Positions 1 to 31,412 of a DNA stretch of 64,000 nt are shown in pieces (positions within the stretch are counted from its first letter, which is position 1; each line of letters begins with the position of its first letter). A program made the translations under genes and the position numbers. The notes beneath the pieces were generated by a model. That model searched no databases and was not told the origin of the DNA. It saw only the letters and a list, made by a program, of their open reading frames with translations. The DNA comes from a virus (taxonomy: Duplodnaviria > Caudoviricetes): IMG/VR virus record IMGVR_UViG_3300021185_003947. The stretch is one strand, 5' to 3'.

Positions 1-316
1 CTGAAGCAACCAAAGTAAGTGTTGGCATACCTACAAACTTTACTGCCATAGCATTGAGAATTTTATTTCTCATTGAAGTATCTTGGTTAAATACAAAATT
101 CTCTAACCAATATACCTCGGCATGTTTAGAACGATTTGGGTTCCAATATGAAACTTCTTGTCTCATTGCAGGGCCAAAATCTTCAGAGTATTCGTATTCG
201 TTAATTTGACCCCTTTCTCTTAAAGTTTCTCTTTTAAAAAAATCAAGAACCCACTTATTAAAATAATTAAAATTATTTGGATCACGGGTCTGTTTTAACG
301 TTTTAAGCGAAATCAT
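1..316 (-). CDS. 5' part of a gene running off the left edge; candidate aGPT-Pplase/5-hmdU-DNA-kinase helical-domain family DNA-modifying enzyme
   Basis: Not in the ORF track. Manual translation from ATG at 316 (AAGGA RBS, overlaps the HAD stop) is open to position 1: MISLKTLKQTRDPNNFNYFNKWVLDFFKRETLRERGQINEYEYSEDFGPAMRQEVSYWNPNRSKHAEVYWLENFVF...KILNAMAVKFVGMPT. The spacing resembles the family pattern F.YW..ER...G...WT.DPIL..Y.F.N..R..D..T.WL. Family call is by eye. Confidence 0.5.
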   Translation of the reverse strand, partial: MISLKTLKQTRDPNNFNYFNKWVLDFFKRETLRERGQINEYEYSEDFGPAMRQEVSYWNPNRSKHAEVYWLENFVFNQDTSMRNKILNAMAVKFVGMPTLTLVAS

Positions 317-722
317 GCCGCACATTTTCCTTTTCAACTAAATCGTGTTGTAGCAATACCACATTAATGTGGGGCATCATTTTTCTAATGATTTCTGCTT
401 GAATTGGATCATCTTCATAATGTATTCCAAATCTATATCCAAGTGTTTCAAGATGAAAAAGTGTCCGGCCTTTATGGCGGCCGGAGTCTTCTCTTGATTT
501 TGATTCAAATGGTGTTGGATTTAAATACAATTCATTGGTTATATTTTTAGATTTAAGCATTGCTTCAGTTTCAGATCTTTCTTCATTAGATCGACCTGTA
601 ATGATAACATCTCTATCACCTGGATAAACACCATCATATTTATCCATAAAAATAACACCATCAATATCAAAAGAATTAATTATTTTATCTGGAACAGCAT
701 TTTGCTCTACATAATTATTCAT
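303..722 (-). CDS. HAD-superfamily phosphatase (small, capless)
   Basis: Motif I FDIDGV, motif II ITGR, Lys (RHKG), motif IV YEDD. Likely start ATG 722 overlaps the MIPS stop. Confidence 0.8.
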   Translation of the reverse strand: MNNYVEQNAVPDKIINSFDIDGVIFMDKYDGVYPGDRDVIITGRSNEERSETEAMLKSKNITNELYLNPTPFESKSREDSGRHKGRTLFHLETLGYRFGIHYEDDPIQAEIIRKMMPHINVVLLQHDLVEKENVRHDFA

Positions 723-2010
723 AATCAGTTTTTCCATCTTGGTATGTATATGGCAAATCTTTAGCTTTAGGATTAGATTTAGCTAATTGTGGCCGAGTCA
801 TATTAGTAAGCTCTCGACGAGCAAGGGCATCACATTCAAACTTTGCATCAGATGTTGTAAGCTGAACAGGTGGAGTTTTTTGTGTATAAGCACTTGGCCC
901 ACGAAGAATGCCAACAATTCCCATTTCAGCAGCTACTCGACAGAAACGAATTGCTGATATAACAACACCACCTGAGTTTGGTGAGTCTTGACATGATAGT
1001 CTAGCTTGAAGAGTATAACGAGCTCCACCAAATCCAAATGCTACAATATCAAGATCTGCAATCTTATTATCAGATCCAACATAATCACCACCTGGTTTTT
1101 GCATAACAGTTAGAGATGGGCCGGCATATAGTGTATCACCGGCATAGTCAACACCACGGACAGTATTCTGTCCTTTTAAAACATTTTCTTTTGAGATATG
1201 TTTATTATGTAAACGCTCTTTTTCAGCCATATTAATAAAGTCAGTGTTTGATGTAACACCATTACGAATATGTTCACGGCCTTGGGTTGCTCCACCAATT
1301 CGATTGGTTTGAGTATGATATGTAACATGTAAACCACCATCAATCATTGCACCCTGCAATACCTCAGATAAACGAGATGCTCCCCAAGCTGAACGCATAT
1401 CAGATCCAACAAAAGTAAGACCTGCATTAATAAATTTTTGTTCGATTTCTTGAGTTTCTTTTGTTTCAATCAATGTTGGAATACAATTAACAAAATGTAC
1501 TTCAGCAGCAAGAGCAACGTCTAAATAAAAGCGAGTAGCTTTTTCAGATCCAACTGGCAGATAATTAATAAGAACTTCGACACCAGATGATTTGATAAGA
1601 CTAACAATATCATCAAATGACTTAGCTGATTCAGCACCAACTCTAAATGATACTTCTTCAGGGTAATATTCCATCCATTCTGCAACACCATCAAGTGTTG
1701 GGCTTGAATACACTTGAGCGCCTTTGGCTACAGCTCCAGGTGAATTGTTTCCAGATTCTAATATTTCTTGAACATGATTCATTGCGCAATTTGGTTTTGC
1801 TCGTAAAGCTTCAATAAGAGGACGATTAACTTTACGACGGTCTACGTCAAAGCCAATTACAAATTCAACAGAGCTTGTATCGTATCCACCAATATCTGGA
1901 TACATAAGACCTACAGTATCATTTGGATTTTCATTATAATATTGCATGCCTTCAACAAGCGACTGTGCGCAGTTTCCTACACCAATAATACCAACTTTAA
2001 TTTTCTTCAT
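715..2010 (-). CDS. ino1: myo-inositol-1-phosphate synthase (bacterial/archaeal type)
   Basis: KVGIIGVGNCA NAD-binding start, FDVD..KV, NYLPVGS, VNCIP, NTDFINM, ISK, DSPNSGG and QKTPP all match the MIPS pattern. Confidence 0.92.
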   Translation of the reverse strand: MKKIKVGIIGVGNCAQSLVEGMQYYNENPNDTVGLMYPDIGGYDTSSVEFVIGFDVDRRKVNRPLIEALRAKPNCAMNHVQEILESGNNSPGAVAKGAQVYSSPTLDGVAEWMEYYPEEVSFRVGAESAKSFDDIVSLIKSSGVEVLINYLPVGSEKATRFYLDVALAAEVHFVNCIPTLIETKETQEIEQKFINAGLTFVGSDMRSAWGASRLSEVLQGAMIDGGLHVTYHTQTNRIGGATQGREHIRNGVTSNTDFINMAEKERLHNKHISKENVLKGQNTVRGVDYAGDTLYAGPSLTVMQKPGGDYVGSDNKIADLDIVAFGFGGARYTLQARLSCQDSPNSGGVVISAIRFCRVAAEMGIVGILRGPSAYTQKTPPVQLTTSDAKFECDALARRELTNMTRPQLAKSNPKAKDLPYTYQDGKTDYE

Positions 2011-2039
2011 TTTTACTTCCTTTATTTCAGTTTTTTAAA

Positions 2040-2071
2040 GTGAGATTGGCTGCATAAGCAGAGTAGCTCAC
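2040..2071 (-). other. Stem-loop in the 5' leader of the MIPS gene
   Basis: On the minus strand GTGAG/CTCAC outer stem, 5x5 internal loop, CTGC-TTAT-GCAG inner hairpin. Lies between the promoter and the RBS. Confidence 0.4.
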
Positions 2072-2100
2072 GTTATAGTTATAATAGTTTTAGTGATTAT

Positions 2101-2129
2101 ATTATATTACATTTTTAATAAAATGTAAA
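2101..2129 (-). promoter_or_regulatory. sigma70-type early promoter for the MIPS operon
   Basis: TTTACA-N17-TATAAT on the minus strand. Confidence 0.8.
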
Positions 2130-2137
2130 CTAAAAGT

Positions 2138-2671
2138 TTACAAATTAACCCATCTATATTTAAGACCAGCTTCTTTGTAATATGACTTAGATCTTTGCCA
2201 TGAGTCATGCCATTTTTCATCAATCTTTTGCCGTGGCATGACTAGTTCAGCAACTCCTACTTGAATAAGTCCTTTTGCGCAATCAGAACAAGTAGGAAGA
2301 CCTGATACGTAAACAGTTGATTTATTTAAACACACACCATTAAAAGATGCATTATAAATCATGTTCATTTCAGCATGAACAATTCTAACATATTTCTCTT
2401 TTCGATTACTATATAGGTTAGGACTATCAAGCATTCCTCGAGGAAATCCATTATATCCTTGAGCTAAGACTTGCCCTTTTGAACCTACAGCAATGGCTCC
2501 AATTTGGCTTGAAGGATCTTTAGACCATCCAGCAATAGTTTTAGCTAGCTCTAAATATCTTAGATCCCACTTATGTTGTCGGGCAAGAAAAGCTTTATCA
2601 TTTTTTTTATGAGCATTCTCTCTATCTTTCATATCATTATAATTATTTGACAAGATTAAAATGCCTTTCAT
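2138..2671 (-). CDS. cd: dCMP deaminase
   Basis: HAEMN and PTCSDC zinc motifs, WSKDPS, GYNGFPRG. True start may be the ATG at 2632. Confidence 0.93.
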   Translation of the reverse strand: MKGILILSNNYNDMKDRENAHKKNDKAFLARQHKWDLRYLELAKTIAGWSKDPSSQIGAIAVGSKGQVLAQGYNGFPRGMLDSPNLYSNRKEKYVRIVHAEMNMIYNASFNGVCLNKSTVYVSGLPTCSDCAKGLIQVGVAELVMPRQKIDEKWHDSWQRSKSYYKEAGLKYRWVNL

Positions 2672-3332
2672 ATACGTGAAGATTTTGTACCTGCCAGATC
2701 ATCATACCAGCGCTAACTGGATCTTTAACTATACAGATATTATTTAAATCATCTACTAATTTATTTTGTACATGTCGTTGCCAAGCATAATCGTTCTTAT
2801 AACCAAACACCACATCATTAGACCGCATTTGGACTACACAATGAAGTAAATTATCACGAATATAGTAAGTGACAGCGTTAGTACAAATGAAATCAGATTT
2901 TCCATTTTCGTTAAACTCCACCCAAATAGAAGGCCGATTGTAGATCATAGAAGCACGTCTACCATCGGGATTTTTGTCTAGTTCAGCCAATACGTTTTGA
3001 TATTGATCATAGTATTTATTCGAATAAATTAGATGACCATAGTTTGAATTAATTTCACCATGTGTATTAGCAGCATATTTCCAAGCAGCTGGAGCATCTT
3101 CGCCAGACTCTTTATTAATATCAAAGATATTAGTTGATTGGCTATCATACCAATCCAATTCTTTTTGAATATATGAAAGAGACGGTTTACCAAATATAGA
3201 TGGCTCATCAGCAATAAATGATGCACCAATCATTTCAATAGTGCGTGCGCCAGTTTTATCAATAGTAAATGCTTCATCATTTAATTCATCAATAAAGAAT
3301 TGACGAACATCTTTTACAGAATTCATTTTCAT
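2643..3332 (-). CDS. 42: dCMP hydroxymethylase (T4 gp42 homolog; thymidylate synthase fold)
   Basis: Collinear with T4 gp42: DKTG..TIE.IGASF.ADEP.IFG, GEINSNYG, DF.CTN, MRSNDVVFG.KNDYAWQ, LHVY.RHF. The Asp of NDYAW is the dCMP-specificity residue. Confidence 0.92.
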   Translation of the reverse strand: MKMNSVKDVRQFFIDELNDEAFTIDKTGARTIEMIGASFIADEPSIFGKPSLSYIQKELDWYDSQSTNIFDINKESGEDAPAAWKYAANTHGEINSNYGHLIYSNKYYDQYQNVLAELDKNPDGRRASMIYNRPSIWVEFNENGKSDFICTNAVTYYIRDNLLHCVVQMRSNDVVFGYKNDYAWQRHVQNKLVDDLNNICIVKDPVSAGMMIWQVQNLHVYERHFNLVK

Positions 3333-3736
3333 TGCTCACATACTCTCTTTCTTAGATCGCTTGTTGAAAAGCGATGATCACGTTTATTAAAATAAAGATC
3401 TATACCACGTTGTCGACATTCATCTTTACCAGTAAAATCTTTACTCCTATATTCTTCACCAAGTATCCTAACATCAATTGGATACATGTTTATTATATCA
3501 CATAAATCGCTTTCTGTACAATAAATAATCACTTCATCTACATATTTTATTGCATTGAGCTGTACCTGTCTTTCCACAATATTTTGAATTGGAGCATTCT
3601 TTTCTTTACGATCGATGGTAGGATCTACTTGCAGACCGCAGATCAAATAGTCACACTGTGACTTTGCTTCTCTGAGCATAGATACATGTCCAGCATGAAG
3701 TAAATCAAAAGTACTACAAGTAAATCCCACTTTCAT
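3329..3736 (-). CDS. HIGH-type cytidylyltransferase (TagD / glycerol-3-phosphate cytidylyltransferase-like)
   Basis: FDLLHAGH, KYVDEV, FSTSDLR. Its stop overlaps the gp42 start (ATGA). Confidence 0.88.
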   Translation of the reverse strand: MKVGFTCSTFDLLHAGHVSMLREAKSQCDYLICGLQVDPTIDRKEKNAPIQNIVERQVQLNAIKYVDEVIIYCTESDLCDIINMYPIDVRILGEEYRSKDFTGKDECRQRGIDLYFNKRDHRFSTSDLRKRVCEQ

Positions 3737-4041
3737 TAGTCGTGTTCTCCATTATTTCTACGACCGTTATATCCATCAATTCTATCAAAAAGCTTAGGAT
3801 TGCGCTTTGCAGTATCAAATGTGCCGACTGTAATCACAATTGCTGCTAATAGCAATGTATGAACGATTGCGTTAATACCCCAAAACATAATGCTTCCTAA
3901 ATACATAGAGCATACAGATACCCACATCCAAGCAAGTATCTGCATAATCAAATGTCTAACTTGAAGATTTGGTATATTTCTTAAAGGATTAATATCTGCA
4001 TCCATGACACTATTCCAAGCATCATTAATAAATTCTCTCAT
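3736..4041 (-). CDS. Hypothetical membrane protein (two predicted TM helices)
   Basis: Two hydrophobic segments (ILAWMWVSVCSMYLGSIMFWG; IVHTLLLAAIVITVG); coupled to its neighbours. Confidence 0.65.
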   Translation of the reverse strand: MREFINDAWNSVMDADINPLRNIPNLQVRHLIMQILAWMWVSVCSMYLGSIMFWGINAIVHTLLLAAIVITVGTFDTAKRNPKLFDRIDGYNGRRNNGEHD

Positions 4042-4384
4042 TGTCCGATCTCCCTACAGTTTCTCTTATGATATCGTTGTGGTTAAACTCAGCCCAGTAT
4101 AACTCAAAAGCTACACCAGGTTCAATACATTCAAATTGATGATAAACTCCTGGTTTCACTTTAGTATATTCACCAGCTTGTAAAATAGTTTCATCGATTA
4201 AATCGTAATCATTTTGCCATACGCGTACAAGCATTATTCCTGACTCGATATAGAAACCATTCCATTTGTACTCATGCAGATGTTTTGAGCATACTCCTGT
4301 AGCTTCCATTTCAATACGATGAAATTCTAAAGTGCCATTAGCTTCAATGAGTTCAGTCATTCCCCAGACTTTACCAGCTTTCAA
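4025..4384 (-). CDS. Cupin (RmlC-like) protein, possible sugar isomerase
   Basis: KVWG start, H.H..K...F.I.SG and VKPGVYHQF cupin metal motifs. Confidence 0.7.
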   Translation of the reverse strand: MKAGKVWGMTELIEANGTLEFHRIEMEATGVCSKHLHEYKWNGFYIESGIMLVRVWQNDYDLIDETILQAGEYTKVKPGVYHQFECIEPGVAFELYWAEFNHNDIIRETVGRSDNERIY

Positions 4385-5650: not shown

Positions 5651-6586
5651 TTATGCATTTTTATATGCATATTCTATAGCTCTATCAGCTTCAATATTTA
5701 ATGGTCGTTTTTCATATCTACGGCTTGTTTCATTATCCAATTCTCTTACTAATTGTTCAATTTCATATGACGATATTGGATATTCTTTTTTAATAGCACT
5801 TATTGCTGTTGATACCATGATCTTATATATCATAGCGTATCTACCAGAATTATCAATACCAGATATAGCAAACCATTCTTTAATATGATTCTTATTAATA
5901 AATGGACAGTCTCTATATCCAGACCAATTAAAATTAGTATTTTCCATTTTATTTTTACGATGTTCTATAACCTGAGCTTGCATTTCAGGTGTAAGCCTAT
6001 CCATAAATGATGACCCTCGTTTTTCAGTATATGGATGTTTGGATATTAACTGCTCAGGATCAATATACACACCACTATTACTGAATATAAAATTGTTAGC
6101 GCCAGCATACGTTGCAGGGATGTAATACATTCGAGATAAATCTTTAGTTTGTCCATCTCCAATTTCGCCGAGTTCTTTATTGAGGGCGAACCAAAAATGT
6201 CTAATTTTATCAGATTTAATCTTTGCTTTAATTGGAAAGACAAGTCTAAACTTTGGATGATTATCGGAACTACTAGCAGTACTATAGCAAACATAATGAA
6301 AACTGCCGAAACGATTATATAATTCATCCTTTAGGTTTCCTTTAAACTCATGATCATCAACATCAACAGCAGTCCAACCTGACCAATCCAAAACATTTTT
6401 GTTTGCCCGAGTCGTATCATCAACATAACTAGCTGGTGATATAAGTTCAGCATCTTTTTTTCCTTTCCGAGGTATCTCAGACAATTTATACAACAGCTTC
6501 TCAAATTGAGAGAAGCTTTTAAATTTCATGTTACGATTAGTTTTGTTATCGTATATAGATTTAAAGAATGTCGCTGAGACTTCCAT
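5651..6586 (-). CDS. Archaeo-eukaryotic primase (AEP/prim-pol)-like protein
   Basis: AVDVDD, YSTAS...KFRLVFP and DLSRMYYIP motifs, with a helical C-terminal domain. Start moved to MEVSAT (6586). Confidence 0.7.
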   Translation of the reverse strand: MEVSATFFKSIYDNKTNRNMKFKSFSQFEKLLYKLSEIPRKGKKDAELISPASYVDDTTRANKNVLDWSGWTAVDVDDHEFKGNLKDELYNRFGSFHYVCYSTASSSDNHPKFRLVFPIKAKIKSDKIRHFWFALNKELGEIGDGQTKDLSRMYYIPATYAGANNFIFSNSGVYIDPEQLISKHPYTEKRGSSFMDRLTPEMQAQVIEHRKNKMENTNFNWSGYRDCPFINKNHIKEWFAISGIDNSGRYAMIYKIMVSTAISAIKKEYPISSYEIEQLVRELDNETSRRYEKRPLNIEADRAIEYAYKNA

Positions 6587-6974
6587 GATTACCTCTATGA
6601 GTTGGTGCAGTCCATCCTTCAGGCTTAAGCAAATCAGGCAATCCAAATGGATTAGGACGACCAGGCTTTACGCCAGGAGATTTAGTCATATTAGCATCAA
6701 ATACTTTTGTCCAAGCCTCATTACCATTTACACCTAAAACTTCAAGTGTACCAATAGCAAATACACACATATCAATTAAACCATCAACTACTTCTTCAGC
6801 ATCTTTTGCTTCAATAGCATCCATAGTCTCGTCATATTCTTCTTTAATCATTGACATACGAAATGCAAGATATTTTGCCATCAATTCCTTATTATCTTTA
6901 TTAGCTTCAAACCAATCATTTACTCCGAATTTTTTATGCATTTGCTCGATGTCATTAAACCATACTTTAGTCAT
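6561..6974 (-). CDS. MazG-like / PRA-PH all-alpha NTP pyrophosphohydrolase (candidate dCTPase/dUTPase)
   Basis: MIKEEYDE...EEVVDGLID acidic motif, V.DANMTK, GRPNPFGLPDLLKP. Confidence 0.8.
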   Translation of the reverse strand: MTKVWFNDIEQMHKKFGVNDWFEANKDNKELMAKYLAFRMSMIKEEYDETMDAIEAKDAEEVVDGLIDMCVFAIGTLEVLGVNGNEAWTKVFDANMTKSPGVKPGRPNPFGLPDLLKPEGWTAPTHRGNHGSLSDIL

Positions 6975-6999: not shown

Positions 7000-7028
7000 A
7001 TTATAACATATTTTTAACAGCTTGTAAA
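7000..7028 (-). promoter_or_regulatory. Early promoter inside the 3' end of PMM
   Basis: TTTACA-N17-TATAAT. Confidence 0.7.
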
Positions 7029-7717
7029 TAAGAAAATGTATCTTCCCAACTATTCACTTGATATGTACTATTTTCTCCTCCACGATCATGTACAGCTAAT
7101 GCGATTTCATGATCATTTCCACCTTTATCACATTTGTCTCCAAAGAAATAGATAACATCTGAAGAATCAAAATCATCAAGAATTTGTGATTTATTATTTC
7201 CTTTAGCAGTAATATCTATACCGGTTTCGCCAGCGACTTGAAATTCAAACAATGGAAATCGCTCTCGTAGCTTAGCAGCAATATTATTTCTTTCATTAGT
7301 ATAATTGTCATATGCTACGTATTGAATTCGAGTACGATTACCTATATTTCTTCCTGGAATAGACAAGTTATATAGACCCGGACGTTCCTCAATATGCTGT
7401 CCGTTTTTAACTGGAAATGAACTGTCAGTAATTGCTTTGTTTAAATAGCCCCACATTTCATCTGGTAACTTTAAAGTAGAAGTACGAACATTCTTACCGC
7501 GTTCCCACACGTCATTTCCACAACATTGATAATTGCGCTTAGTCATTCCCCAAATAACTTCTCCAACTTGCTCTCGTGTTTTTTGAATATCGCTACCTGT
7601 TACTAAATACACTTTATTTAAAGTACAAAAATCAAAGAAAAACTTTGAAAACTCTTCATCCATTTTACCTCTGCTTGGAGTAAGAGTTCCATCAACATCA
7701 AAAATAAAATTAATCAT
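7001..7717 (-). CDS. Phosphomannomutase, eukaryotic HAD-IIB type
   Basis: FDVDGTLTP.R, VTGSD, IEER, IAGETGIDI, FFGDKC..GGND.EI. Confidence 0.85.
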   Translation of the reverse strand: MINFIFDVDGTLTPSRGKMDEEFSKFFFDFCTLNKVYLVTGSDIQKTREQVGEVIWGMTKRNYQCCGNDVWERGKNVRTSTLKLPDEMWGYLNKAITDSSFPVKNGQHIEERPGLYNLSIPGRNIGNRTRIQYVAYDNYTNERNNIAAKLRERFPLFEFQVAGETGIDITAKGNNKSQILDDFDSSDVIYFFGDKCDKGGNDHEIALAVHDRGGENSTYQVNSWEDTFSYLQAVKNML

Positions 7718-8942
7718 TTATTAAGCTTTCTAGAATGTTTAACACACTTTCACTATCGTCATGAGTACCACGTCTAATAGCTCCCTTGACACAATTTCTA
7801 GTAAAGTCCAATGGATATCGCTTGCCTTCTTTATCCATTCCCGTATTGATTAAATATACATTGCATTTATTATCATTAATTTTACTCATTAGTAAATCAC
7901 TATAAACATGTATCGGTCTTGGCATAAAAGGTGAGCCATAGCATGGACTAAAGAGTGGCTTGATTTCTGTTGCTCCCTGCTCAGTTCCGGGCATTTGGCT
8001 TGTGTATCCAGTTTCAAAGAAACGTCGTACAGTCTCATCAGAAATTTTAGATACCGGAGGAAACACGCCTTTCGCATCCATAGTAAGAAAAAAGATATTA
8101 GTTGGATGATTAAATTGTTGAGGTTTATGATATGCGTTTTCAACACAAGTAATTGGATAACTTAATCTTGCATTTGGTACACCTGGATTTTCTACAACTA
8201 AGCAATCTTCTGATCTTGCTTTTTCTACTGCATCAAATATAGTCTTATGTGTCTCTGGTGTTAATCCTTCACTTTTTGCGTAACAACCAGTTTCTATCAT
8301 TTCAATTCCATCGTGATTCCAAGATACTTCGTCATCACTAATTAATCTATAATCCGGATCGCTACTAAGAGTAGTTTTACCAGTACCACTTAATCCAAAC
8401 ATTAAATTAGTTGTATCATTATATGTAAAGGCACTACAATGCATTGGTAAAATATCATATCTTGGTAGTTCAAAACTAACTATACCAAATATACCTTTTT
8501 TGATTTCACCTAAAAATGTTGTTCCAGCAATTAACATAGTTTTAGTATCAAGATTTACATAGATTTTTGGTTCATCGACCTTTAATTCTGTGTTATGCCA
8601 AATCGTCCAATCAGAATCATGTGCGCTATGTGGATAAACTTGAGGATCAAACCCATCAGGCAATACATCAAACATATTCTTAACAAATTGCTCATGTCTC
8701 GCATCATTAGTAATTATTTTAAATCTGATATTACATGTCTCAAGGCATAAAGGTTCTTTATAAATCAATTGAGATATTAACCTAGGCATCATCAAATCTG
8801 CAAGTTGAAGAAAGTCTTCCATCTCTCCAACTTTATAATACTTTGGTCGAGTCTTATCTAAACACTTTGTTTTTTCTCCAAAAAAGTATTTATTTTCTGG
8901 GCTTCGGCCAGTTGGATTTGTTGTAATATTAATATTTGTCAT
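7710..8942 (-). CDS. pckA: Phosphoenolpyruvate carboxykinase (ATP), compact form
   Basis: [22 protein letters not shown]-loop [33 protein letters not shown]. 410 aa versus about 540 aa in cellular PckA. Confidence 0.9.
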
Positions 8943-22988: not shown

Positions 22989-24638
22989 ATGGCTAGACGC
23001 ATAACTGTAAACTTAAGTGACACTATCAACACTTGGAGAATAAAGACAAATGCTCTCAGTCTTTTGATAGGTGATTTAGATGATTTATCTTCTGAATTTA
23101 CTGGTCATGATTCTGATTTTGTAGAAGCTATGAATTTTGCATTTGATAAAAAAGGCCTCTACTCAGCAGGTCTTGGAATAACCAAATCAACTAGTGGAGA
23201 TTCTTCAGGTGTATTTAATGTTTTAGCTGGAACTGGATTAACACAGGATTCAAATGGTTTAAGTATAGGCCCTGCTCCGGGAAATACAATTAAAGTTAGA
23301 GATGCAAATTCTGCCGGAGCTTTGTCTGATAAAGAAATAATTAATGAACAAATTTTAATTGGTAATGGCAATGGTTTTACATCTGCTGCTTTATCTCAAG
23401 ATGTTCTTATGACAAATGCTGGTGTTGTTACAATTCAACCTGATGTTGTTACGTATTCTAAAATGCAAAATGTTGTAGGCGCAAACAAAGTTCTTGGAAG
23501 TTCAACCGCAAATGGAATTATAACAGAGACTCAAGTGCAAACTGGAATGATTGCAGATGACGCTGTTACTACTGTTAAAATTCTAGATGATAATGTTACA
23601 TATGCTAAAATTCAAGATGCAGGCGCCAATTCAATTCTAGTTAGAGACGGAGCTGCAGCTGGAGATATATCAGCAAAAACTTTAACAGATACTCAAATCT
23701 TAATTAATAATGGAGCAGGATTTACTGCTGCAGCATTATCTGGTGATATTACAATGAATAATGCTGGAGTAGTAACAGTTGATCCGTCAGTAATCGGGAG
23801 TGTAGGCATTACTATCGGTGGAAACGCCCCAACTTCACCTGCAAATGGAACAGCCTGGTTTGACGATGTAACAGCCGGCGAAATGTTTGTATATAGCGAT
23901 AGCGCATCAAATTGGATACAGGTCACAGGGTCTATCACTTCTTTTTCAGCTATAAGTGGAACACCACCGGCGGCACCTTTAGATGGTACTTTTTGGTTTG
24001 ATGATGTAACAGACGGAGAACTGTTCATTTATAGTGATAGTGCATCAAATTGGATACAGGTTACTGGATCAATCACTTCTTTTTCAACAATAGGCGCATC
24101 GCCTCCAGCTGCACCTTTAAATGGTACTTTTTGGTTTGATGACAGCGCAACTGGAGAACTGTTTATTTATAGTAATGATGCATCAAATTGGATACAGGTT
24201 ACTGGCGTAGTCGCTAATGTAGCATTCTCCGATTTAACAAGTACTCCAACTACTTTAGCTGGCTACGGAATTACAGATGCACCGTCGGTATTAACTGACC
24301 TAAGTATTACTGATGGAACAAGCGGACAAGTACTAACAACAGACGGTAGTGCTGGATTTACATTTACATCTGCATCAAGTAGTACAACCTTTAATGCCAT
24401 TGGAACTTATTGTTTGGGGTTCTATACTGGTCTTGGCATTCACAATGGAGGTGCTACTTTCTCAGGAAGTTCAATTGCTACTGCTAATACTTATGCCGGT
24501 ACTAGTGGCTGGAGTGGATCTAGTACTTCTACTTTATCAGGAACTTGGCGCCTTATGGGAAACATAGGCTATTATAATCAAGGTACCACTGCAAGTAACG
24601 CAAACGTATCCGGCAGTTTATTTGTGAGGATTTCATAA
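22989..24638 (+). CDS. Modular tail-fibre/whisker-like virion protein (549 aa)
   Basis: N-terminal VNLSDTINTWRIKTN anchor-like motif, A.T..KI.D..VT repeats, three 42-aa WFDD repeats, VAFSDLTS linker, C-terminal SGTWR.M..LF.RIS domain. Confidence 0.75.
   Translation: MARRITVNLSDTINTWRIKTNALSLLIGDLDDLSSEFTGHDSDFVEAMNFAFDKKGLYSAGLGITKSTSGDSSGVFNVLAGTGLTQDSNGLSIGPAPGNTIKVRDANSAGALSDKEIINEQILIGNGNGFTSAALSQDVLMTNAGVVTIQPDVVTYSKMQNVVGANKVLGSSTANGIITETQVQTGMIADDAVTTVKILDDNVTYAKIQDAGANSILVRDGAAAGDISAKTLTDTQILINNGAGFTAAALSGDITMNNAGVVTVDPSVIGSVGITIGGNAPTSPANGTAWFDDVTAGEMFVYSDSASNWIQVTGSITSFSAISGTPPAAPLDGTFWFDDVTDGELFIYSDSASNWIQVTGSITSFSTIGASPPAAPLNGTFWFDDSATGELFIYSNDASNWIQVTGVVANVAFSDLTSTPTTLAGYGITDAPSVLTDLSITDGTSGQVLTTDGSAGFTFTSASSSTTFNAIGTYCLGFYTGLGIHNGGATFSGSSIATANTYAGTSGWSGSSTSTLSGTWRLMGNIGYYNQGTTASNANVSGSLFVRIS
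23826..24207 (+). repeat. Three tandem 126-bp coding repeats (P..P..GT.WFDD...GE.F.YS..ASNWIQVTG)
   Basis: Visible in both DNA and protein; ends approximate. Confidence 0.8.
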
Positions 24639-24744
24639 TGACTATTGGAGTAGTTCTGAAGCAAATAGCGGTTCAAAGGGGTATACTGGTGGTACAGAAA
24701 CCCGGCCAAGAAACATTGCATTTCTAGCTTGTATTAAATATTAA
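24628..24744 (+). pseudogene. Orphan 3' remnant of a tail-collar gene (...GGTETRPRNIAFLACIKY*)
   Basis: Start-less frame after TGA 24625-27. Its last ~50 nt, including the next RBS taaggaga, nearly match 25800-25851. Confidence 0.75.
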
Positions 24745-24756
24745 GGAGACATTGGT

Positions 24757-25152
24757 ATGAACGTATATCAGACAGATTTAAATGGTGTTTATGTAGGCAC
24801 TACAACAGCAGATCAAGACCCTTTAGATGACACTAACTGGCTTATTCCAGCGGGTTGCGTACAGACTGCACCACCAACAATAACTGACAGCCAACTTGCT
24901 AAGTGGGATGGTTCAGGATGGGTTGTAGAGAATATACCCATTGTAGAACCTGATCCAGAACCTGAGTCTATTGCACCAGAAGTTTTAGCCCGTGGAAAGC
25001 GTGACGGACTATTGATAACTTCAGATTGGACACAGGTTGATGACTCTCCTGTAGATAAGTCTGCTTGGGCAACATACAGACAACTTTTACGGGACGTACC
25101 AACTCAAGCAGGATTTCCAAACACAATAACATGGCCCACTTCACCCGAATAG
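24757..25152 (+). CDS. Tail-fibre assembly chaperone
   Basis: Tfa-like N-terminus (YQ.D..G.YVG...LIPAG...PP) plus R..RD.LL..SDW...W..YRQ.LRD.P.Q.GFP..I.WP. Confidence 0.85.
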   Translation: MNVYQTDLNGVYVGTTTADQDPLDDTNWLIPAGCVQTAPPTITDSQLAKWDGSGWVVENIPIVEPDPEPESIAPEVLARGKRDGLLITSDWTQVDDSPVDKSAWATYRQLLRDVPTQAGFPNTITWPTSPE

Positions 25153-25178
25153 AGTATGCATAATTAGGAGAAAAAGGA

Positions 25179-25847
25179 ATGCCATATCCATTAAACCCGA
25201 CAACAGGTGATGAATATATTTTAGGATCAAAAACTTGGAAATACAATGGTTCGCGCTGGGTAAAATTAGGACTTTCACAAACTGTATCTGCAGATGTAGC
25301 ATTCTCAGATTTAACAAGTACTCCAACTACATTATCAGGCTATGGAATTACTGATGCTGCAAGTTCATCAAGTGCATCAGTTCCTGCCGGTACATTAATT
25401 TATCATGCAGCTAATACAGCCCCTACAGGCTTTATTAAGGCTAATGGTGCTGCTATATCAAGAACAACTTATGCTGATTTGTTTGCAGCAATAGGCACTA
25501 CGTATGGCGCTGGTGATGGATCTTCTACTTTTAATGTCCCCGACCTTCGTGGTGAGTTTATGCGTGGATGGGATGACGCGCGCGGAATTGATACCAGTCG
25601 TTCTTTTGGTTCTGCACAGGCTGATGAATTTAAGCTACACGGTCACCCTTCAAGGCGGGGCACTGAATTTAATGTTACCAACGATACTGGCGGCGGCGGT
25701 ATACTCATGGACAGTAATGGAGGTCAAGCAAACAGGTCAGCGTTTACAGGAACACCATCAAATACTGATGGGCAACATATTGGCGGCTCTGGAGGTTCAG
25801 AAACACGTCCAAGAAACATTGCATTTCTAGCTTGTATTAAATATTAA
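25179..25847 (+). CDS. Short tail-fibre protein with one tail-collar domain
   Basis: P.GT.I..A....P.GF..ANGA..SRT.YA.LF..IGT.YG.GDG..TFN.PDLRGEF.RGWD ... ETRPRN.A...CIKY. Confidence 0.85.
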   Translation: MPYPLNPTTGDEYILGSKTWKYNGSRWVKLGLSQTVSADVAFSDLTSTPTTLSGYGITDAASSSSASVPAGTLIYHAANTAPTGFIKANGAAISRTTYADLFAAIGTTYGAGDGSSTFNVPDLRGEFMRGWDDARGIDTSRSFGSAQADEFKLHGHPSRRGTEFNVTNDTGGGGILMDSNGGQANRSAFTGTPSNTDGQHIGGSGGSETRPRNIAFLACIKY

Positions 25848-25859
25848 GGAGAAACAATA

Positions 25860-26276
25860 ATGTCTGTTACAATTACACAAGTGCGTAATGCACAATCACT
25901 TAACGTAGAGAATACTGCATATGATGTAGAAATTAATCATCCCGATTACGGTTGGATACCTTACACTTTGGACCCTAGCGACACTGATATGACTATCGAT
26001 AACAATGCTGTAATGTCTTTGATAAGCACAAACTTTACATCTTATGTAGCACCTACTCAGGCAGAGTTAGATGCAGAACTTGAAGCAAATCTAAGAAGTC
26101 AACGTGACCAGAAGTTAGTAGAAGAATTGGACCCTATAGTAACTAACCCTTTACGTTGGGCAGAACTTACATCTGATAAGCAAACAGAGTGGACACAATA
26201 TAGAACTGACTTATTAAATGTACCACAACAGTCAGGGTTTCCTACAAATGTAACTTGGCCAGATAAACCTGTATAA
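25860..26276 (+). CDS. Tail-fibre assembly chaperone
   Basis: LR.QRD..L ... W..YR..L..VPQQ.GFP..V.WP C-terminus. Confidence 0.8.
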   Translation: MSVTITQVRNAQSLNVENTAYDVEINHPDYGWIPYTLDPSDTDMTIDNNAVMSLISTNFTSYVAPTQAELDAELEANLRSQRDQKLVEELDPIVTNPLRWAELTSDKQTEWTQYRTDLLNVPQQSGFPTNVTWPDKPV

Positions 26277-26279
26277 ATA
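26272..26279 (+). promoter_or_regulatory. Late promoter inside the fibre cassette
   Basis: TATAAATA about 20 nt before the ATG at 26300. Confidence 0.65.
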
Positions 26280-26299
26280 TATAATCAGGAGAAACAGAA

Positions 26300-28072
26300 A
26301 TGGCATATCCAACAAATCCAACGACCGGTGACACCTATGTTTTAGGATCAAAAACTTGGACCTACAATGGCACGAACTGGGTAAATCAAGCAACGTTTGC
26401 ATCAGGTAGTAGTGCTAGTGTAGCATTCTCCGATTTAACAAGTACTCCAACTACATTAGCTGGCTACGGAATTACAGATGGTGGCAGTGGTAGCGGTGGC
26501 GGAGCAATGGAATTCATTGCTTCATCAGGGGCTTTAAGTAATGTGGCTGATGTTAGCTTTACACAGTTTGATGCAACTAAGTATGATCATTATGTCTTTG
26601 CGCTTCAAAATGTCATACCTGATACAAATGGTGCAAACTTATTTGCACGCTTAAGGCCAACTGGAAGTTCGACTTATTCTGCCACTAGTGGAAATTATGA
26701 AACGGCTGGTAGTGCTAGAACAGCGTTTGTATTAGCTGATAGTGTGGGGACTAATACACATGGCTATGGTGTAGGTGGTTTATTTAATTTATATGCGCTA
26801 CATTTAACTGATGAATACACGTTCGCAGATACCGTTAATTTGATATATACACGAAATAATGGAGTAACGACACAAACAATATCGTATGCTGGGGCTGGTA
26901 ATATTTACAAGCAAGCAACAGCGGTCGATGCGATTCGATTCTTTTTTTCGTCAGGGAACATCTTCTCGGGCGAAATAGTAATGTACGGAATTAGGAATTC
27001 AGCATCGGGTGGAGGAGGAGCCGGAGGCGGTAGTGTAGCATTCTCCGATTTAACAAGTACTCCAACTACCTTAGCCGGCTACGGAATTACAGATGGTGCA
27101 AGTGAATCAGCTGCAGTTGGTACAGTAATTTATCATTCAGCTAATACAGCCCCTACAGGCTTTATTAAGGCTAACGGCGCTGCTATATCAAGAACAACTT
27201 ACTCTGATTTGTTTACGGCAATTGGTACAACTTTTGGTAGTGGCGATGGATCTTCTACTTTTAATGTCCCCGACCTTCGCGGCGAGTTTCCTAGAGGTTG
27301 GGATGACGGCCGTGGAATTGATGCCAGCCGTTCTTTTGGTTCTGCACAGGCTGACCAAATGGAATCCCACAATCACAGCGTACCTTCTGCCGCTAACTTT
27401 GGTGGTAATCATGACCGAATAGTAGTTGGTACCGGAGTGTTTTCAAGCAACAATGCGTCTACAGATTTCACCGGTGGAACGTCTAATTCTTCTGAAAACC
27501 GCCCAAGAAACATAGCCCTACTTGCTTGTATTAAATATCAATCAACCTCTTCTGGTGGTGGTGGCGGTTCTCTCAGCAACATAGTTGAAGATACCACACC
27601 ACAGCTTGGTGGCAATCTGGACGCCCAAACATTTGATATCACTACCACAGGAAAGATACTATACGCGAATATGTATGCTACAGAAGGTGATTTGCCAAGT
27701 GCAACCACCTATCACGGTATGTTTGCACATGTTCACGGTACAGGAGCAGGTTACTTTGCTCATGGCGGTAATTGGATTAAACTAGCAAATCATGCAGACC
27801 TGAGTAGTGCATCAGGTAGTACAACAGCTGGAGGTGTTGGTACTTACTCACTACTTGGTAAAGCTGATGGTAGCACTACATCTCTTGGCACAGATGTATC
27901 GGGCAGTTCACTTCGGTATAGTAGCACTTATTCTTACAGTCCAAGTTACTATGGCATGTCAGGGTCTGCGCCTAGCGGCACATGGCGCTGCATGTCTGTC
28001 GGCGGGGCTTATAATTTATCAACAACTGCTGCGAATTCAACAACAGTTACTATATTTCTAAGGATTTCATAA
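26300..28072 (+). CDS. Modular tail-fibre protein (590 aa, one collar domain)
   Basis: YPTNPTTGD N-terminus, two VAFSDLTS linkers, collar domain, YHGMFAHVH module, SGTWR.M..FLRIS C-terminus. Confidence 0.82.
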   Translation: MAYPTNPTTGDTYVLGSKTWTYNGTNWVNQATFASGSSASVAFSDLTSTPTTLAGYGITDGGSGSGGGAMEFIASSGALSNVADVSFTQFDATKYDHYVFALQNVIPDTNGANLFARLRPTGSSTYSATSGNYETAGSARTAFVLADSVGTNTHGYGVGGLFNLYALHLTDEYTFADTVNLIYTRNNGVTTQTISYAGAGNIYKQATAVDAIRFFFSSGNIFSGEIVMYGIRNSASGGGGAGGGSVAFSDLTSTPTTLAGYGITDGASESAAVGTVIYHSANTAPTGFIKANGAAISRTTYSDLFTAIGTTFGSGDGSSTFNVPDLRGEFPRGWDDGRGIDASRSFGSAQADQMESHNHSVPSAANFGGNHDRIVVGTGVFSSNNASTDFTGGTSNSSENRPRNIALLACIKYQSTSSGGGGGSLSNIVEDTTPQLGGNLDAQTFDITTTGKILYANMYATEGDLPSATTYHGMFAHVHGTGAGYFAHGGNWIKLANHADLSSASGSTTAGGVGTYSLLGKADGSTTSLGTDVSGSSLRYSSTYSYSPSYYGMSGSAPSGTWRCMSVGGAYNLSTTAANSTTVTIFLRIS

Positions 28073-30384
28073 TGTCATATCCAACAAATCCAACTACGGG
28101 CGATACGTATATTTTAAGTGGAAAAACTTGGAAATATGATGGTGCGAACTGGTTAAAATTAGGACTTTCACAAGCTGTATCTACTAATGTAGCATTTTCA
28201 GATTTAACAAGTACTCCAACTACTTTAGCTGGCTATGGAATTACAGATGGTGCAACAGGAACAGGTGAATCAGTTCCAGTTGGTACGGTAATTTATCATT
28301 CAGCCAACACACCCCCTACGAATTTCATAAAAGCCAATGGTGATGCTGTATCGAGGACAACTTACTCTGATTTGTTTACAGTTATTGGAACTACGTATGG
28401 CGCTGGTGATGGGTCCACTACATTTAACGTGCCTGACCTTCGTGGTGAGTTTATGCGTGGCTGGGATGATAGTCGTGGAATTGATAACGGTCGTTCCTTT
28501 GGCTCGGCTCAAGCGGATGAGCTAAAAGCACACACTCACAACTACACAGACGGGACAAACGGAACAAACCCAACAGGCACCGGGGCCGGAACAAATAATT
28601 CGTTTCCTGTGGTGAATGGACGAGCAACCAGCGAGACAGGCGGTACAGAAACCCGTCCAAGAAACATAGCCCTACTTGCTTGCATTAAATATCAATCAAC
28701 GTCTGGATCAGGTAGTAGTGCTGGTGTAGCATTCTCCGATTTAACAAGTACTCCAACTACCTTAGCCGGCTACGGAATTACAGATGGTGGCGGTGGTGGT
28801 TCATATGCAAATAGTGATGTTGATACACACTTGAACCAAGGTACTGCGACATCTAATCAAGTGTTAAGTTGGAATGGTACAGATTATGCATGGGTATCAA
28901 ATAGCATTGCAAATTCATCAGTTTCTGCCGGTACAGTAATTTATCATGCAGCTAATACTCCCCCTACAAATTTCATAAAAGCTAATGGTGCTGCTATATC
29001 GAGGACAACTTACTCTGATTTGTTTGCAGCAATTGGTACAACTTTTGGTAGTGGTGACGGCTCTTCCACGTTCAATGTTCCTGACCTTCGTGGTGAGTTT
29101 CCCAGAGGTTGGGATGACGGCCGTGGAATTGATACTAGTCGAGCTTTTGGTTCTGCACAGGCTGATGAGTTAAAAAGTCACACACACACTGTTTACAACG
29201 GTACAGCGGTTGATGACAACCGTGCCTACTCAGCGGCGGATTCTACACAACGATTATATTCAGGCTCTCCGAATAGGGAAACGGCAGCTACAGGTGGTAC
29301 AGAAACCCGCCCACGCAACATAGCCCTACTTGCTTGCATTAAATATCAATCAACCTCTTCTGGTGGTGGTGCTGGTGTAGCATTCTCAGATTTAACAAGT
29401 ACTCCAACTACATTATCAGGCTATGGAATTACAGGTGATATTGATGCCGGAGGCAACAAAGTATTATTTGCAAACATGTATGCTACAGAAGGTGATTTGC
29501 CAAGCGCGACCACCTATCATGGTATGTTTGCTCATGTTCATTCTACAGGCGCAGGCTACTTTGCTCACGCTGGTAACTGGGTTAAACTAGCAAATCATAC
29601 AGACCTAAGTAGTATATTAGCTTCTGATTACCCAGTAGAACCTAATTGGAATTCACACACAGAAGAAATTACTACATCAAGCACTTGGACTAAACCAGCC
29701 GCTTTAAGTGATGACGCTTGGGTCATTGCTTATGGTGTTGGTGGTGGAGGTGCCGGTGGACATACGTTTGCGAATAAGACTGGTTTTTCATCTATCCAAA
29801 AGGCGAGGGCTGGGGCAGGTGGTGGTGCTATGATCATTGCTTTGAAGGCTAGCACACTTAACGGCGCTTCATTTACAATTGGCAGTGGTGGTATTGGTTC
29901 TACTTCCAGTCAAGGACCGGCCGGTGGCAATACTACTATTACAACCATAGGAACTGGTAGTACAATATATACAGCTGCTGGCGGCGAAGGCGGAATAGCG
30001 GCTAACTCAGGTGCTTCTACTGGCGGCGGTGGACAGATAATTTGGTGGACAAGGCCAGGTGAAAATGATATATCCGCTAGTTGGGATGTAACTGGTGGTG
30101 GTTCAGGAGCTGGCGCAGATACAAGCTTTACTCCTGCTACTGAACAATTTGCAGGTGGTGCATCACAAGGCATGACAGGAAATGCCGGCGGTGGTGCCTT
30201 TGGTGTCTCAACTTACGCAGGTGATGGTGTAGCTGCATCTACTACAAATGTAGATGGTGTAAACGGTGGATTTCCAGGTGGTGGCGGCGGTGCTACACAC
30301 GTTAATTTCGGCGGTAGTACTACAACAACCGTAGTGACTGGTGATGGTGCAAACGGTTCAATTAGACTATACTATACAATATAA
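28072..30384 (+). CDS. Modular tail-fibre protein (770 aa, two collar domains, Gly-rich C-terminus)
   Basis: YPTNPTTGD start, two collar domains, three linkers, YHGMFAHVH module, GGGGAGG glycine-rich tail. Confidence 0.82.
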   Translation: MSYPTNPTTGDTYILSGKTWKYDGANWLKLGLSQAVSTNVAFSDLTSTPTTLAGYGITDGATGTGESVPVGTVIYHSANTPPTNFIKANGDAVSRTTYSDLFTVIGTTYGAGDGSTTFNVPDLRGEFMRGWDDSRGIDNGRSFGSAQADELKAHTHNYTDGTNGTNPTGTGAGTNNSFPVVNGRATSETGGTETRPRNIALLACIKYQSTSGSGSSAGVAFSDLTSTPTTLAGYGITDGGGGGSYANSDVDTHLNQGTATSNQVLSWNGTDYAWVSNSIANSSVSAGTVIYHAANTPPTNFIKANGAAISRTTYSDLFAAIGTTFGSGDGSSTFNVPDLRGEFPRGWDDGRGIDTSRAFGSAQADELKSHTHTVYNGTAVDDNRAYSAADSTQRLYSGSPNRETAATGGTETRPRNIALLACIKYQSTSSGGGAGVAFSDLTSTPTTLSGYGITGDIDAGGNKVLFANMYATEGDLPSATTYHGMFAHVHSTGAGYFAHAGNWVKLANHTDLSSILASDYPVEPNWNSHTEEITTSSTWTKPAALSDDAWVIAYGVGGGGAGGHTFANKTGFSSIQKARAGAGGGAMIIALKASTLNGASFTIGSGGIGSTSSQGPAGGNTTITTIGTGSTIYTAAGGEGGIAANSGASTGGGGQIIWWTRPGENDISASWDVTGGGSGAGADTSFTPATEQFAGGASQGMTGNAGGGAFGVSTYAGDGVAASTTNVDGVNGGFPGGGGGATHVNFGGSTTTTVVTGDGANGSIRLYYTI

Positions 30385-30405
30385 TATACTAGTAAGGATA
30401 AACTA

Positions 30406-30681
30406 ATGTCTAAAATATTTTATAACAAAGAAACAGGTCTTGGTGCAGTATTTGATAATTCTGCAAACATAAGTGATTGGCCTGACTTTCAGGAAAGTGC
30501 TGTGGTAGCAAACGCAATACAAGTACGAGCGGATCGGGATGCATTACTAGTGGCAGCTGACTACATGGCTTTAGCTGACCGCATAACAGATGAGTGGCGC
30601 ACTTATCGACAAGCATTGAGAGACTTGCCTGCCCAAGAAGGGTTTCCCACAAATGTAACTTGGCCAGATAAACCTGAATAA
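30406..30681 (+). CDS. Tail-fibre assembly chaperone
   Basis: VRADRD.LL...D ... WR.YRQALRDLP.Q.GFP..V.WP. Confidence 0.85.
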   Translation: MSKIFYNKETGLGAVFDNSANISDWPDFQESAVVANAIQVRADRDALLVAADYMALADRITDEWRTYRQALRDLPAQEGFPTNVTWPDKPE

Positions 30682-30706
30682 TTAATTATGTAAATAAAGG
30701 TGATCA

Positions 30707-31402: not shown

Positions 31403-31412
31403 GGAATTAATT

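Follow-up and report, generated by a model that had tools for sequence, protein, structure and literature searches.

The first 3736 nucleotides of a 64,000-nt stretch of viral DNA, IMG/VR record IMGVR_UViG_3300021185_003947 (the window, whose coordinates are used throughout), are best explained as the right-hand half of a DNA hypermodification island of a marine T4-like phage. The island combines a dCMP hydroxymethylase of the T4 gp42 type with a myo-inositol phosphate synthase family enzyme (MIPS) and a minimal phosphatase of the haloacid dehalogenase (HAD) superfamily. At and beyond the left edge of the window it adds three proteins, namely a helix-hairpin-helix (HhH) protein, an SGNH fusion protein and a C5-methyltransferase-like (C5-MT-like) protein, which by sequence and predicted structure carry the folds or motifs of enzymes acting on flipped-out pyrimidines. 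Our best reading of this assembly, which we put forward tentatively, is that a free cyclitol may be coupled to the hydroxymethyl carbon of 5-hydroxymethylcytosine (hmC) in DNA. Because the MIPS and HAD genes also lie inside other kinds of modification cluster in distant phages, a cyclitol-decorated base is a real possibility.

Related contigs (L numbers below) were fetched by way of the MIPS protein, and counts of loci refer to the best 80 of at least 160 IMG/VR contigs with a MIPS relative; the wider metagenomic protein collection holds more than 7,600 such relatives. At 65 of the 80 loci (context A) the genes for gp42, a deaminase, MIPS, HAD, the HhH protein (in two clades), the SGNH fusion and the C5-MT-like protein, at times with MazG ahead of them, are joined by overlapping start and stop codons. 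Eight loci (context B) comprise a TET/JBP oxygenase, an FkbM-type methyltransferase, ADDT (PF18724), MIPS, HAD and a P-loop nucleotide kinase, and four (context C) comprise GTP cyclohydrolase I, an unknown open reading frame (ORF), MIPS, HAD, a QueC-like protein and further unknown ORFs. The remaining three have no modification neighbour and come from contigs of less than 5.6 kb. The arrangements recur in cultured phages: Caulobacter phage Cr30 encodes TET/JBP, ADDT (E=1.3e-52), MIPS, HAD and the kinase, Stenotrophomonas phage Mendera encodes FolE, MIPS, HAD, a QueC-like protein and QueE, and in Ralstonia phage RP13 an ADDT-like protein and an HMUD2 kinase flank MIPS and HAD; the Stenotrophomonas phages Moby and IME-SM1 are further cultured carriers. 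The tie between MIPS and HAD and genes for DNA-base hypermodification is thus borne out at 77 of the 80 loci and in three cultured phage groups.

The MIPS proteins of contexts B and C keep approximately 70% identity while UvsX falls from about 74% to about 31%, and these sequence comparisons therefore indicate that the MIPS and HAD pair has moved horizontally between lineages into modification islands. The original prediction had bound phage MIPS to gp42 and regarded an independent occurrence of the two as fatal. Co-occurrence is found at 65 of the 80 loci and fails in Cr30, in Mendera and in contigs of contexts B and C, all of which lack gp42. Phage MIPS genes independent of gp42 formally exist, yet the gp42-less cases sit in other DNA-modification clusters, and the idea is therefore widened rather than abandoned.

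Two of the related contigs carry additional genes near MIPS. A TnpB/IS605 OrfB-type gene (Cas12f1-like TNB, OrfB_IS605; L037:8557-9828, minus strand) stands just upstream of MIPS in a deazaguanine-type cluster on a 129-kb viral contig. On L038, a 359-kb IMG/VR contig of a jumbo T4-like phage with a CheckV completeness estimate of 100%, MIPS, HAD, HhH and SGNH fusion genes occur approximately 1 kb downstream of the major capsid gene gp23, and a gene for a class I methyltransferase separates MIPS from HAD.

Enzymes encoded by the island

All window features described in this section lie on the minus strand. The gp42-type hydroxymethylase (2643..3332; 229 aa, thymidylate-synthase fold) has T4 dCMP hydroxymethylase as its closest solved relative (1B49/1B5E, E=1.3e-70, versus approximately 3e-8 for thymidylate synthases). 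The equivalents of T4 Glu60, Cys148 and Asp179, the last being the cytosine-specifying residue altered in the deposited D179N mutant, are identical in the window protein and in all 46 distinct homologues from an alignment of related contigs. The T4 match and the conservation of these residues uphold its assignment as a genuine cytosine-specific hydroxymethylase, and the diagnostic residues rule out a dUMP hydroxymethylase. According to a 2026 study, some 'gp42' genes of T4-like phages make 5-hydroxy-dCMP, and those carry Asn at the ThyA-D169 position (PMC13326640). Because the equivalent residue stays Asp in the window protein, as it does in 45 of the 46 homologues, a 5-hydroxycytosine (5hoC) synthase of the RB69 gp48 type was rejected.

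A dCMP deaminase (2138..2671; 177 aa; Pfam dCMP_cyt_deam_1 E=3.2e-15, phrog_174 E=5.6e-34) is encoded next to gp42, as in most context A loci. Further upstream lies a MazG/PRA-PH-like NTP pyrophosphatase (6561..6974; 137 aa; Pfam PRA-PH E=3.1e-8, phrog_671 E=7e-24, DR2231 MazG-like E=1e-3), homologues of which (45-60% identity) are encoded upstream of gp42 in approximately 35 loci; it is a candidate dCTPase travelling with the module.

The MIPS-family enzyme (715..2010; 431 aa; Pfam Inos-1-P_synth PF01658, 37.7 bits against a cut-off of 27) is a probable inositol-3-phosphate synthase. Residues 15-359 of Mycobacterium tuberculosis Ino1 (1GR0) align to its residues 3-391 over the full length and colinearly (E=4.7e-48), and the second-best solved relative is Ari2 (6K96), a five-membered cyclitol-phosphate synthase (E=7.7e-28). 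The phage clade bears insertions amounting to approximately 60 extra residues relative to Ino1. Across 65 distinct phage homologues, those of cultured Cr30, Mendera and RP13 included, 80 residues are invariant, among them N255/D257, K270/K274, D314/K316, D342/S343 and K378, and the motifs N-x-D-F, K-x-x-S-K, D-x-K and D-S-x-N-S are common to phage MIPS and Ino1. Given the full-length alignment and the invariant shared motifs, MIPS-type chemistry is likely. By the A. fulgidus numbering, K270, K274, K316, D314, D342 and K378, which lie in the motifs shared with 1GR0, would presumably match published catalytic residues.

The HAD phosphatase (303..737; ORF of 144 aa, protein of 139-144 aa; phrog_415 E=1.3e-7) has motif I DIDGV and plausible motifs II to IV (ITGRS, YEDD). 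Its gene always lies directly 3' of the MIPS gene and is present in nearly all 80 loci and in Cr30, Mendera and RP13. Within the HAD coding sequence, a perfect GC-rich hairpin of 7 bp (TCCGGCC...GGCCGGA; 464-485) has a terminator-like score on both strands.

The HhH protein is represented in the window by its N-terminus, approximately 105-112 of 358 aa (1..337, ORF 337..2), and in full at L005:11695-12771. HMUDK_hel (PF18723, E=1.2e-9) is the sole family in a Pfam scan of the whole protein, which contains neither a Walker A motif nor a match to a kinase family. An AlphaFold2 (AF2) model (pLDDT 91) is all-helical with a DNA-glycosylase-like HhH fold and matches an HMUDK_hel cluster in AFDB (E=2.4e-14, TM 0.78); Foldseek comparison to the PDB returned nothing under E=0.1. 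In the VIA structural comparison the model comes closest to 8Z2N, the PaMx11 5-PmdU glycinyltransferase (aGPT-Pplase2; Z=9.7, rmsd 4.5, 242 residues), followed by queuosine hydrolase (DUF2419) and then by OGG/AlkA glycosylases. E306-x3-C310-Q311 is invariant in 18 sequences, an invariant E-x3-C-Q is shared by five ADDT proteins, and the spacing from hairpin to Cys is 99 residues in the HhH protein and 96 in ADDT. In aGPT-Pplase2/AADT enzymes the Cys attacks C6, the Glu is essential, and an amine or hydroxyl nucleophile then traps the exocyclic methylene (PMC8989533); the essential AADT Cys is Cys247 in PMC11472151. We regard the HhH protein as a candidate base-flipping transferase. Its description in the original prediction as aGPT-Pplase/HMUDK-like stands as far as the HMUDK_hel helical, HhH-like domain is concerned, which occurs alone; the kinase domain is absent. 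A DNA kinase (5-HMUDK) was ruled out because the protein lacks a P-loop and its model is all-helical.

Beyond the window edge, a 342-aa protein is predicted (AF2, pLDDT 85) to combine an N-terminal Rossmann-like domain with a C-terminal SGNH/GDSL domain. The former faintly resembles the acceptor domain of T4 beta-glucosyltransferase (BGT; Pfam E=0.015, 1QKJ E=9.5e-4). This weak N-terminal match is all that recalls a GT-B glycosyltransferase architecture, the C-terminal ~200 aa being SGNH-like (2HSJ, E=1.1e-5, target TM ~0.6). The catalytic blocks S157 (GDSH), G179, N204 (GNID) and H320 are invariant in 18 sequences, with atypical spacing of blocks III and V. The adjoining 400-aa protein (Pfam DNA_methylase E=1.1e-18) retains C5-MT motifs I, IV, VI, VIII, IX and X as LIGGE, PCA, ENA, QVRDR, RE and QNV, all invariant, and deviates from the canonical motifs in PCQ>PCA and ENV>ENA. 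C5-methyltransferases exchange groups at 5hmC in vitro, and this protein could therefore be a second catalyst; it could equally be an ordinary methylase.

The SGNH and HhH parts also occur as one polypeptide. ORF233c of Aeromonas phage 44RR2.8t (795 aa; L090:8001-10388) consists of an SGNH-fusion part (33% identity) followed by an HhH part (30% identity), and the same fusion is present in Aeromonas phage 31 and relatives. It directly follows a sodium:solute symporter gene (L090:6408-7931 in 44RR2.8t), through whose product the group synthesised by MIPS and HAD in marine phages might be imported. 44RR has a gp42 homologue (E=1.2e-59). Phages 44RR, 31 and 25 contain genes 42 and 56 and no glucosyltransferase, and an alternative modification of their hmC was left as a question in a 2010 review (PMC2993671).

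Coupling of a cyclitol and competing explanations

On sequence evidence, the gp42-type enzyme makes 5-hydroxymethyl-dCMP, and the MazG-like pyrophosphatase and the dCMP deaminase reshape the pyrimidine pools. Under the favoured explanation, MIPS would convert glucose-6-phosphate to inositol-3-phosphate, from which HAD would free myo-inositol or a close cyclitol. The HhH enzyme would act once replication is over, flipping out hmC and attacking C6 with its Cys. The 5-hydroxymethyl oxygen would then leave, perhaps after activation through acylation by the SGNH domain, a speculative step proposed because context A lacks a DNA kinase; acylation is a common biochemical alternative to phosphorylation. 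Finally, a cyclitol hydroxyl would add to the exocyclic methylene to yield an ether-linked 5-(inosityloxymethyl)cytosine. The model for this coupling is the way in which aGPT-Pplase2/AADT enzymes of phages ViI and M6 transfer serine and glycine, ViI gp247 using the serine hydroxyl. A side branch of the original prediction, in which free inositol arises via HAD and is transferred by the aGPT-Pplase-like enzyme at the left edge, is the variant that fits.

Several observations argue for cyclitol coupling to hmC, namely 8Z2N as the nearest structure, the shared E-x3-C-Q motif, the HhH-SGNH fusion in a gp42-positive phage that lacks a glucosyltransferase (44RR), and the position of MIPS and HAD between ADDT and the P-loop kinase beside TET/JBP at eight loci and in Cr30. 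Others count against it. The cyclitol donor is inferred from gene neighbourhood alone, and every context lies in the plastic part of T4-like genomes that holds genes for replication and nucleotide metabolism and tends to gather unrelated accessory genes; the 80 loci, moreover, are close relatives and not phylogenetically independent. No DNA kinase is present in context A, and a tblastn search with T4 gp1 found no gp1-type dNMP kinase in the window plus 9 kb (73 kb), the same negative in two fragmentary related records being uninformative. For the HhH protein no Pfam match to ADDT (PF18724) or aGPT-Pplase is obtained at E<0.05, the Z of 9.7 to 8Z2N is modest for an all-helical protein, and hhalign of the HhH and ADDT alignments falls short of significance (E=0.22 across 79 columns, the hairpin among them); the proposed homology derives from predicted fold, motif and spacing, with no significant profile match. 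The window MIPS scores 197 bits against the NCBIfam Ino1 equivalog TIGR03450, far under the cut-off of 638, so its substrate could differ. Finally, the FolE/QueC clusters of context C and Mendera have no source of hydroxymethylpyrimidine, and a simple model of inositol transfer onto hydroxymethylpyrimidines does not extend to them.

A broader formulation, possible and held with more reserve, accommodates these clusters. A widespread, mobile two-gene cyclitol cassette, comprising a MIPS-like enzyme and a minimal HAD, would supply a carbocyclic polyol that is attached covalently to phage DNA bases. The acceptor would be hmC in the window phage, with the kinase-free HhH/SGNH/C5-MT-like set, a TET/JBP-made hydroxymethylpyrimidine in Cr30-type phages, by way of kinase and AADT, and maybe 7-deazaguanine in Mendera-type phages.

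The alternatives differ in which part of this scheme they discard. It is rather doubtful, though far from negligible, that the HhH, SGNH fusion and C5-MT-like proteins hypermodify hmC while MIPS and HAD form an auxiliary metabolic or anti-defence cassette lodged in the same plastic early region, with diversion of glucose-6-phosphate or supply of an inositol osmolyte or lipid head group as possible roles. Such a division would suit the Aeromonas phages that possess SGNH fusion, HhH and gp42 without MIPS, the deazaguanine clusters that hold MIPS and HAD without a hydroxymethyl acceptor, the DNA polymerase, UvsX and helicase genes found in the region in every context, and the PEPCK-like and PMM-like metabolic genes nearby in the window. 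Against it, the pair lies inside the clusters (AADT/kinase, FolE/QueC, deaminase/HhH) with overlapping codons, and although it has moved across distant lineages it is found in modification clusters at 77 of 80 loci, the three exceptions being the contigs under 5.6 kb. Less probable, and properly called unlikely, is that the MIPS-like enzyme makes another carbocycle (compare Ari2, which acts on fructose-6-phosphate), or that its product is tailored further, such that the appended group is a cyclitol other than myo-inositol. The rank of Ari2 among solved relatives, the approximately 60 extra residues, the score far under the Ino1 equivalog cut-off and the truncated NDP-sugar dehydrogenase-like and cupin genes nearby would all agree with this, but the enzyme is clearly nearer to Ino1, full-length and colinear, and the residues in the motifs shared with Ino1 are invariant.

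Slightly further down the scale, we think it improbable that the DNA holds plain hmC with no hypermodification, some sites being converted to 5-methylcytosine by an ordinary C5-methyltransferase, and that the HhH and SGNH proteins have a role in repair or another process. The C5-MT-like protein does retain nearly all canonical methyltransferase motifs, neither a kinase nor a complete glycosyltransferase is present, and repair glycosylases also have the HhH fold. This explanation is opposed by the invariant Cys-Glu motif of group-transfer enzymes, by the fusion of the SGNH and HhH parts in 44RR and by their tight conservation alongside gp42 in two phage groups that lie far apart. Least probable of all, and in our judgement very unlikely, is the main route of the original prediction, in which inositol-1-phosphate derived from glucose-6-phosphate is activated to CDP-inositol by a cytidylyltransferase and inositol or phospho-inositol is then passed to hmC. 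The gene in question encodes a TagD/HldE-like nucleotidyltransferase (3329..3736, minus strand; 135 aa; Pfam CTP_transf_like E=1.3e-12) and overlaps the gp42 start codon in the window phage. It occurs in the MIPS neighbourhood of only one of the 80 loci, that of the near-identical relative L023, and is missing from the other 79; because it is not co-conserved with the module, the route is not supported. Its closest homologues (70% identity), from Vibrio and Acinetobacter phages, are not among the MIPS matches, in cyanophage P-TIM68 it stands beside a cupin in a heptose/sugar-nucleotide cluster, and its nearest NCBIfam models are heptose-1-P adenylyltransferase (rfaE_dom_II, 75 bits) and glycerol-3-P cytidylyltransferase (g3p_cytidyltrns, 70 bits), both far under their cut-offs. 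CTP_transf_like genes do appear somewhere in eight of ten larger MIPS-carrying records, but this presence was discarded as evidence because the family is broad and several of the matches lie in open frames of ~350-450 aa rather than of the 135-aa type. The known CDP-inositol synthases (IPCT) are members of another nucleotidyltransferase family. Conservation of the HAD points to a product that has lost its phosphate, and no phosphotransferase was identified.

Surroundings of the island in the window

Judged by its genes, the window comes from the genome of a marine T4-like myophage. It encodes homologues of gp23, gp20, gp18 and gp17, a clamp, clamp loader, gp46-like and other replication proteins, and a family-B DNA polymerase with 53% identity to that of phage C48C1 and ~46% to those of cyanomyophages. 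Its GC content is ~33%. A near-identity DNA search of the phage collection with the window gave no match; the MIPS gene recurs in identical copies on marine metagenome contigs, from TARA and elsewhere, that reach 115 kb.

Base 1 of the window corresponds to position 12010 of L005, and the edge of the window truncates the leftmost ORF. In transcription order the genes are those for DNA polymerase, PEPCK-like, PMM-like, MazG/PRA-PH-like and primase-like proteins, small ORFs, the cupin, a 101-aa ORF, the nucleotidyltransferase, the gp42-like protein and dCMP deaminase, then a promoter-like site, the MIPS-like, HAD and 358-aa HMUDK_hel proteins and, past the edge on L005, the 342-aa protein, the C5-MT-like protein (400 aa), a truncated NDP-sugar dehydrogenase-like protein (272 aa), UvsX, a gp41-like helicase and, further on, ThyX. 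The six genes named in the original prediction are all found where it placed them, on the minus strand and in the families it gave, and their overlapping arrangement is confirmed, with adjoining genes sharing 4-35 nt and a sole gap at 2011-2137. That gap, upstream of the MIPS gene, contains a sigma-70-like promoter match (2101..2129, minus strand; TTTACA-17-TATAAT, 11/12), the top such match in the first 6 kb, where the overall number of matches is not above shuffled controls.

The nucleotidyltransferase is, from its distribution among the related contigs, a peripheral gene outside the conserved module. A small cupin (4025..4384, minus strand; 119 aa; Pfam Cupin_2 E=5e-6, just under the cut-off; phrog_7851 E=4e-13) is likely its equally peripheral partner, and it is the family of this cupin that adjoins the nucleotidyltransferase in P-TIM68. 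Between the DNA polymerase and MazG-like genes, at 7001-8942, lie a peripheral sugar-phosphate gene for a PMM-like HAD-IIB phosphomutase (7001..7717, minus strand; 238 aa; Pfam PMM E=2.8e-24) and a shortened PEPCK_ATP-like gene (410 aa, Pfam E=1e-91). Among the 80 loci, the cupin, PMM-like and PEPCK-like genes accompany MIPS in the nearest relative, L023, only. The NDP-sugar dehydrogenase-like gene (L005:15034-15852) overlaps the end of the C5-MT-like gene, and its product covers profile positions ~65-303 of 413 and lacks the C-terminal domain. Together with the nucleotidyltransferase and the PMM-like enzyme, it may add a separate sugar branch in the window phage.

Elsewhere, the sole plus-strand block of the window (22989-31826) is richer in GC (0.42-0.44 versus ~0.32). 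Its products include two large tail-collar/fibre proteins of 590 and 770 aa, in which collar domains are repeated, and a 549-aa protein without a PHROG match. Very large minus-strand ORFs of 861, 1732 and at least 2097 aa occupy 48202-55982 and 57667-63999, the first two of which are unmatched in PHROG at E<=1e-10. On one related TARA contig (L004:21283-21296 onward) the lysozyme-like gene is closely followed by one for cytochrome b (437 aa), where other contigs have small ORFs.

Known systems and wider meaning

Post-replication hypermodification of hydroxymethylpyrimidines is an established kind of system; novelty would lie in the candidate donor and in the kinase-free enzyme set. In the thymidine hypermodification of phages ViI, M6, PaMx11 and PhiW-14, 5-HMUDK and aGPT-Pplase2/AADT alter a 5-hydroxymethylpyrimidine in DNA after replication (PMC8989533, PMC11472151), a change proposed here from genes. 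Common to the two systems is a helical HhH-like enzyme, with 8Z2N as the nearest structure, in which a Glu stands close to an essential Cys, and in Cr30 and contigs of the L068 type MIPS and HAD lie between bona fide genes for ADDT and a P-loop kinase. They differ in that thymidine hypermodification uses 5-hydroxymethyluracil and an amino acid or polyamine donor, whereas the window system would use hmC made by gp42 and a candidate cyclitol donor, with an HhH protein that matches HMUDK_hel rather than ADDT in Pfam and with the SGNH fusion and C5-MT-like protein in place of the DNA kinase.

With T4 hmC glucosylation (gp42, gp56, gp1 and the alpha- and beta-glucosyltransferases) the island has in common a gp42 orthologue with the same catalytic and specificity residues, the MazG-like pyrophosphatase, the dCMP deaminase and the faint BGT acceptor-domain likeness of the 342-aa N-terminus; in contrast to T4, it lacks a complete GT-B enzyme, the UDP-glucose-binding half being replaced by the SGNH domain, and a gp1 homologue within the 73 kb. 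The arabinosyl-5-hydroxycytosine pathway of RB69 and DLP3, also from T4-like phages, likewise places a thymidylate-synthase homologue beside a small HAD phosphatase and sugar-activating genes for DNA decoration (PMC13326640), but relies on Asn at ThyA-D169 for 5hoC, on UDP-arabinose and on GT-B transferases, whereas the window protein has Asp and matches T4 gp42. Cellular myo-inositol synthesis (Ino1/MIPS with inositol monophosphatase, as in the mycothiol pathway) follows the same synthase-then-phosphatase logic, with homology over the full length of M. tuberculosis Ino1; here, by contrast, the phosphatase is a minimal HAD and not of the IMPase family, the synthase belongs to a phage clade with insertions, and the setting is one of DNA modification. 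ORF233c of Aeromonas 44RR2.8t is alike in its SGNH-fusion and HhH parts, in a gp42-positive phage without a glucosyltransferase, and differs in the lack of MIPS and HAD and in the adjoining symporter.

The literature on inositol or cyclitols and phage DNA modification yielded incidental mentions only and no report of inositol or a cyclitol on DNA, and no function of a phage MIPS gene beyond annotation was found there. Known decorations of hydroxymethylpyrimidines are sugars, amino acids and polyamines. A cyclitol ether, if it exists, would represent a new chemical class, resistant to glycosidases and probably also to many modification-dependent nucleases, and since three cultured phage groups carry the cassette, the idea is directly testable. 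The kinase-free set of HhH-Cys enzyme, BGT-N/SGNH fusion and C5-MT-like protein may reveal a second way of activating the 5-hydroxymethyl group, and may explain what becomes of hmC in phages that, like Aeromonas phage 44RR, have gp42 and no glucosyltransferase, a question raised in PMC2993671. If the proposal is true, the modification would be present in thousands of marine phage genomes; given the more than 7,600 metagenomic relatives and at least 160 IMG/VR viral contigs, it could be frequent in ocean viromes and skew the results of sequencing and of restriction-based methods.

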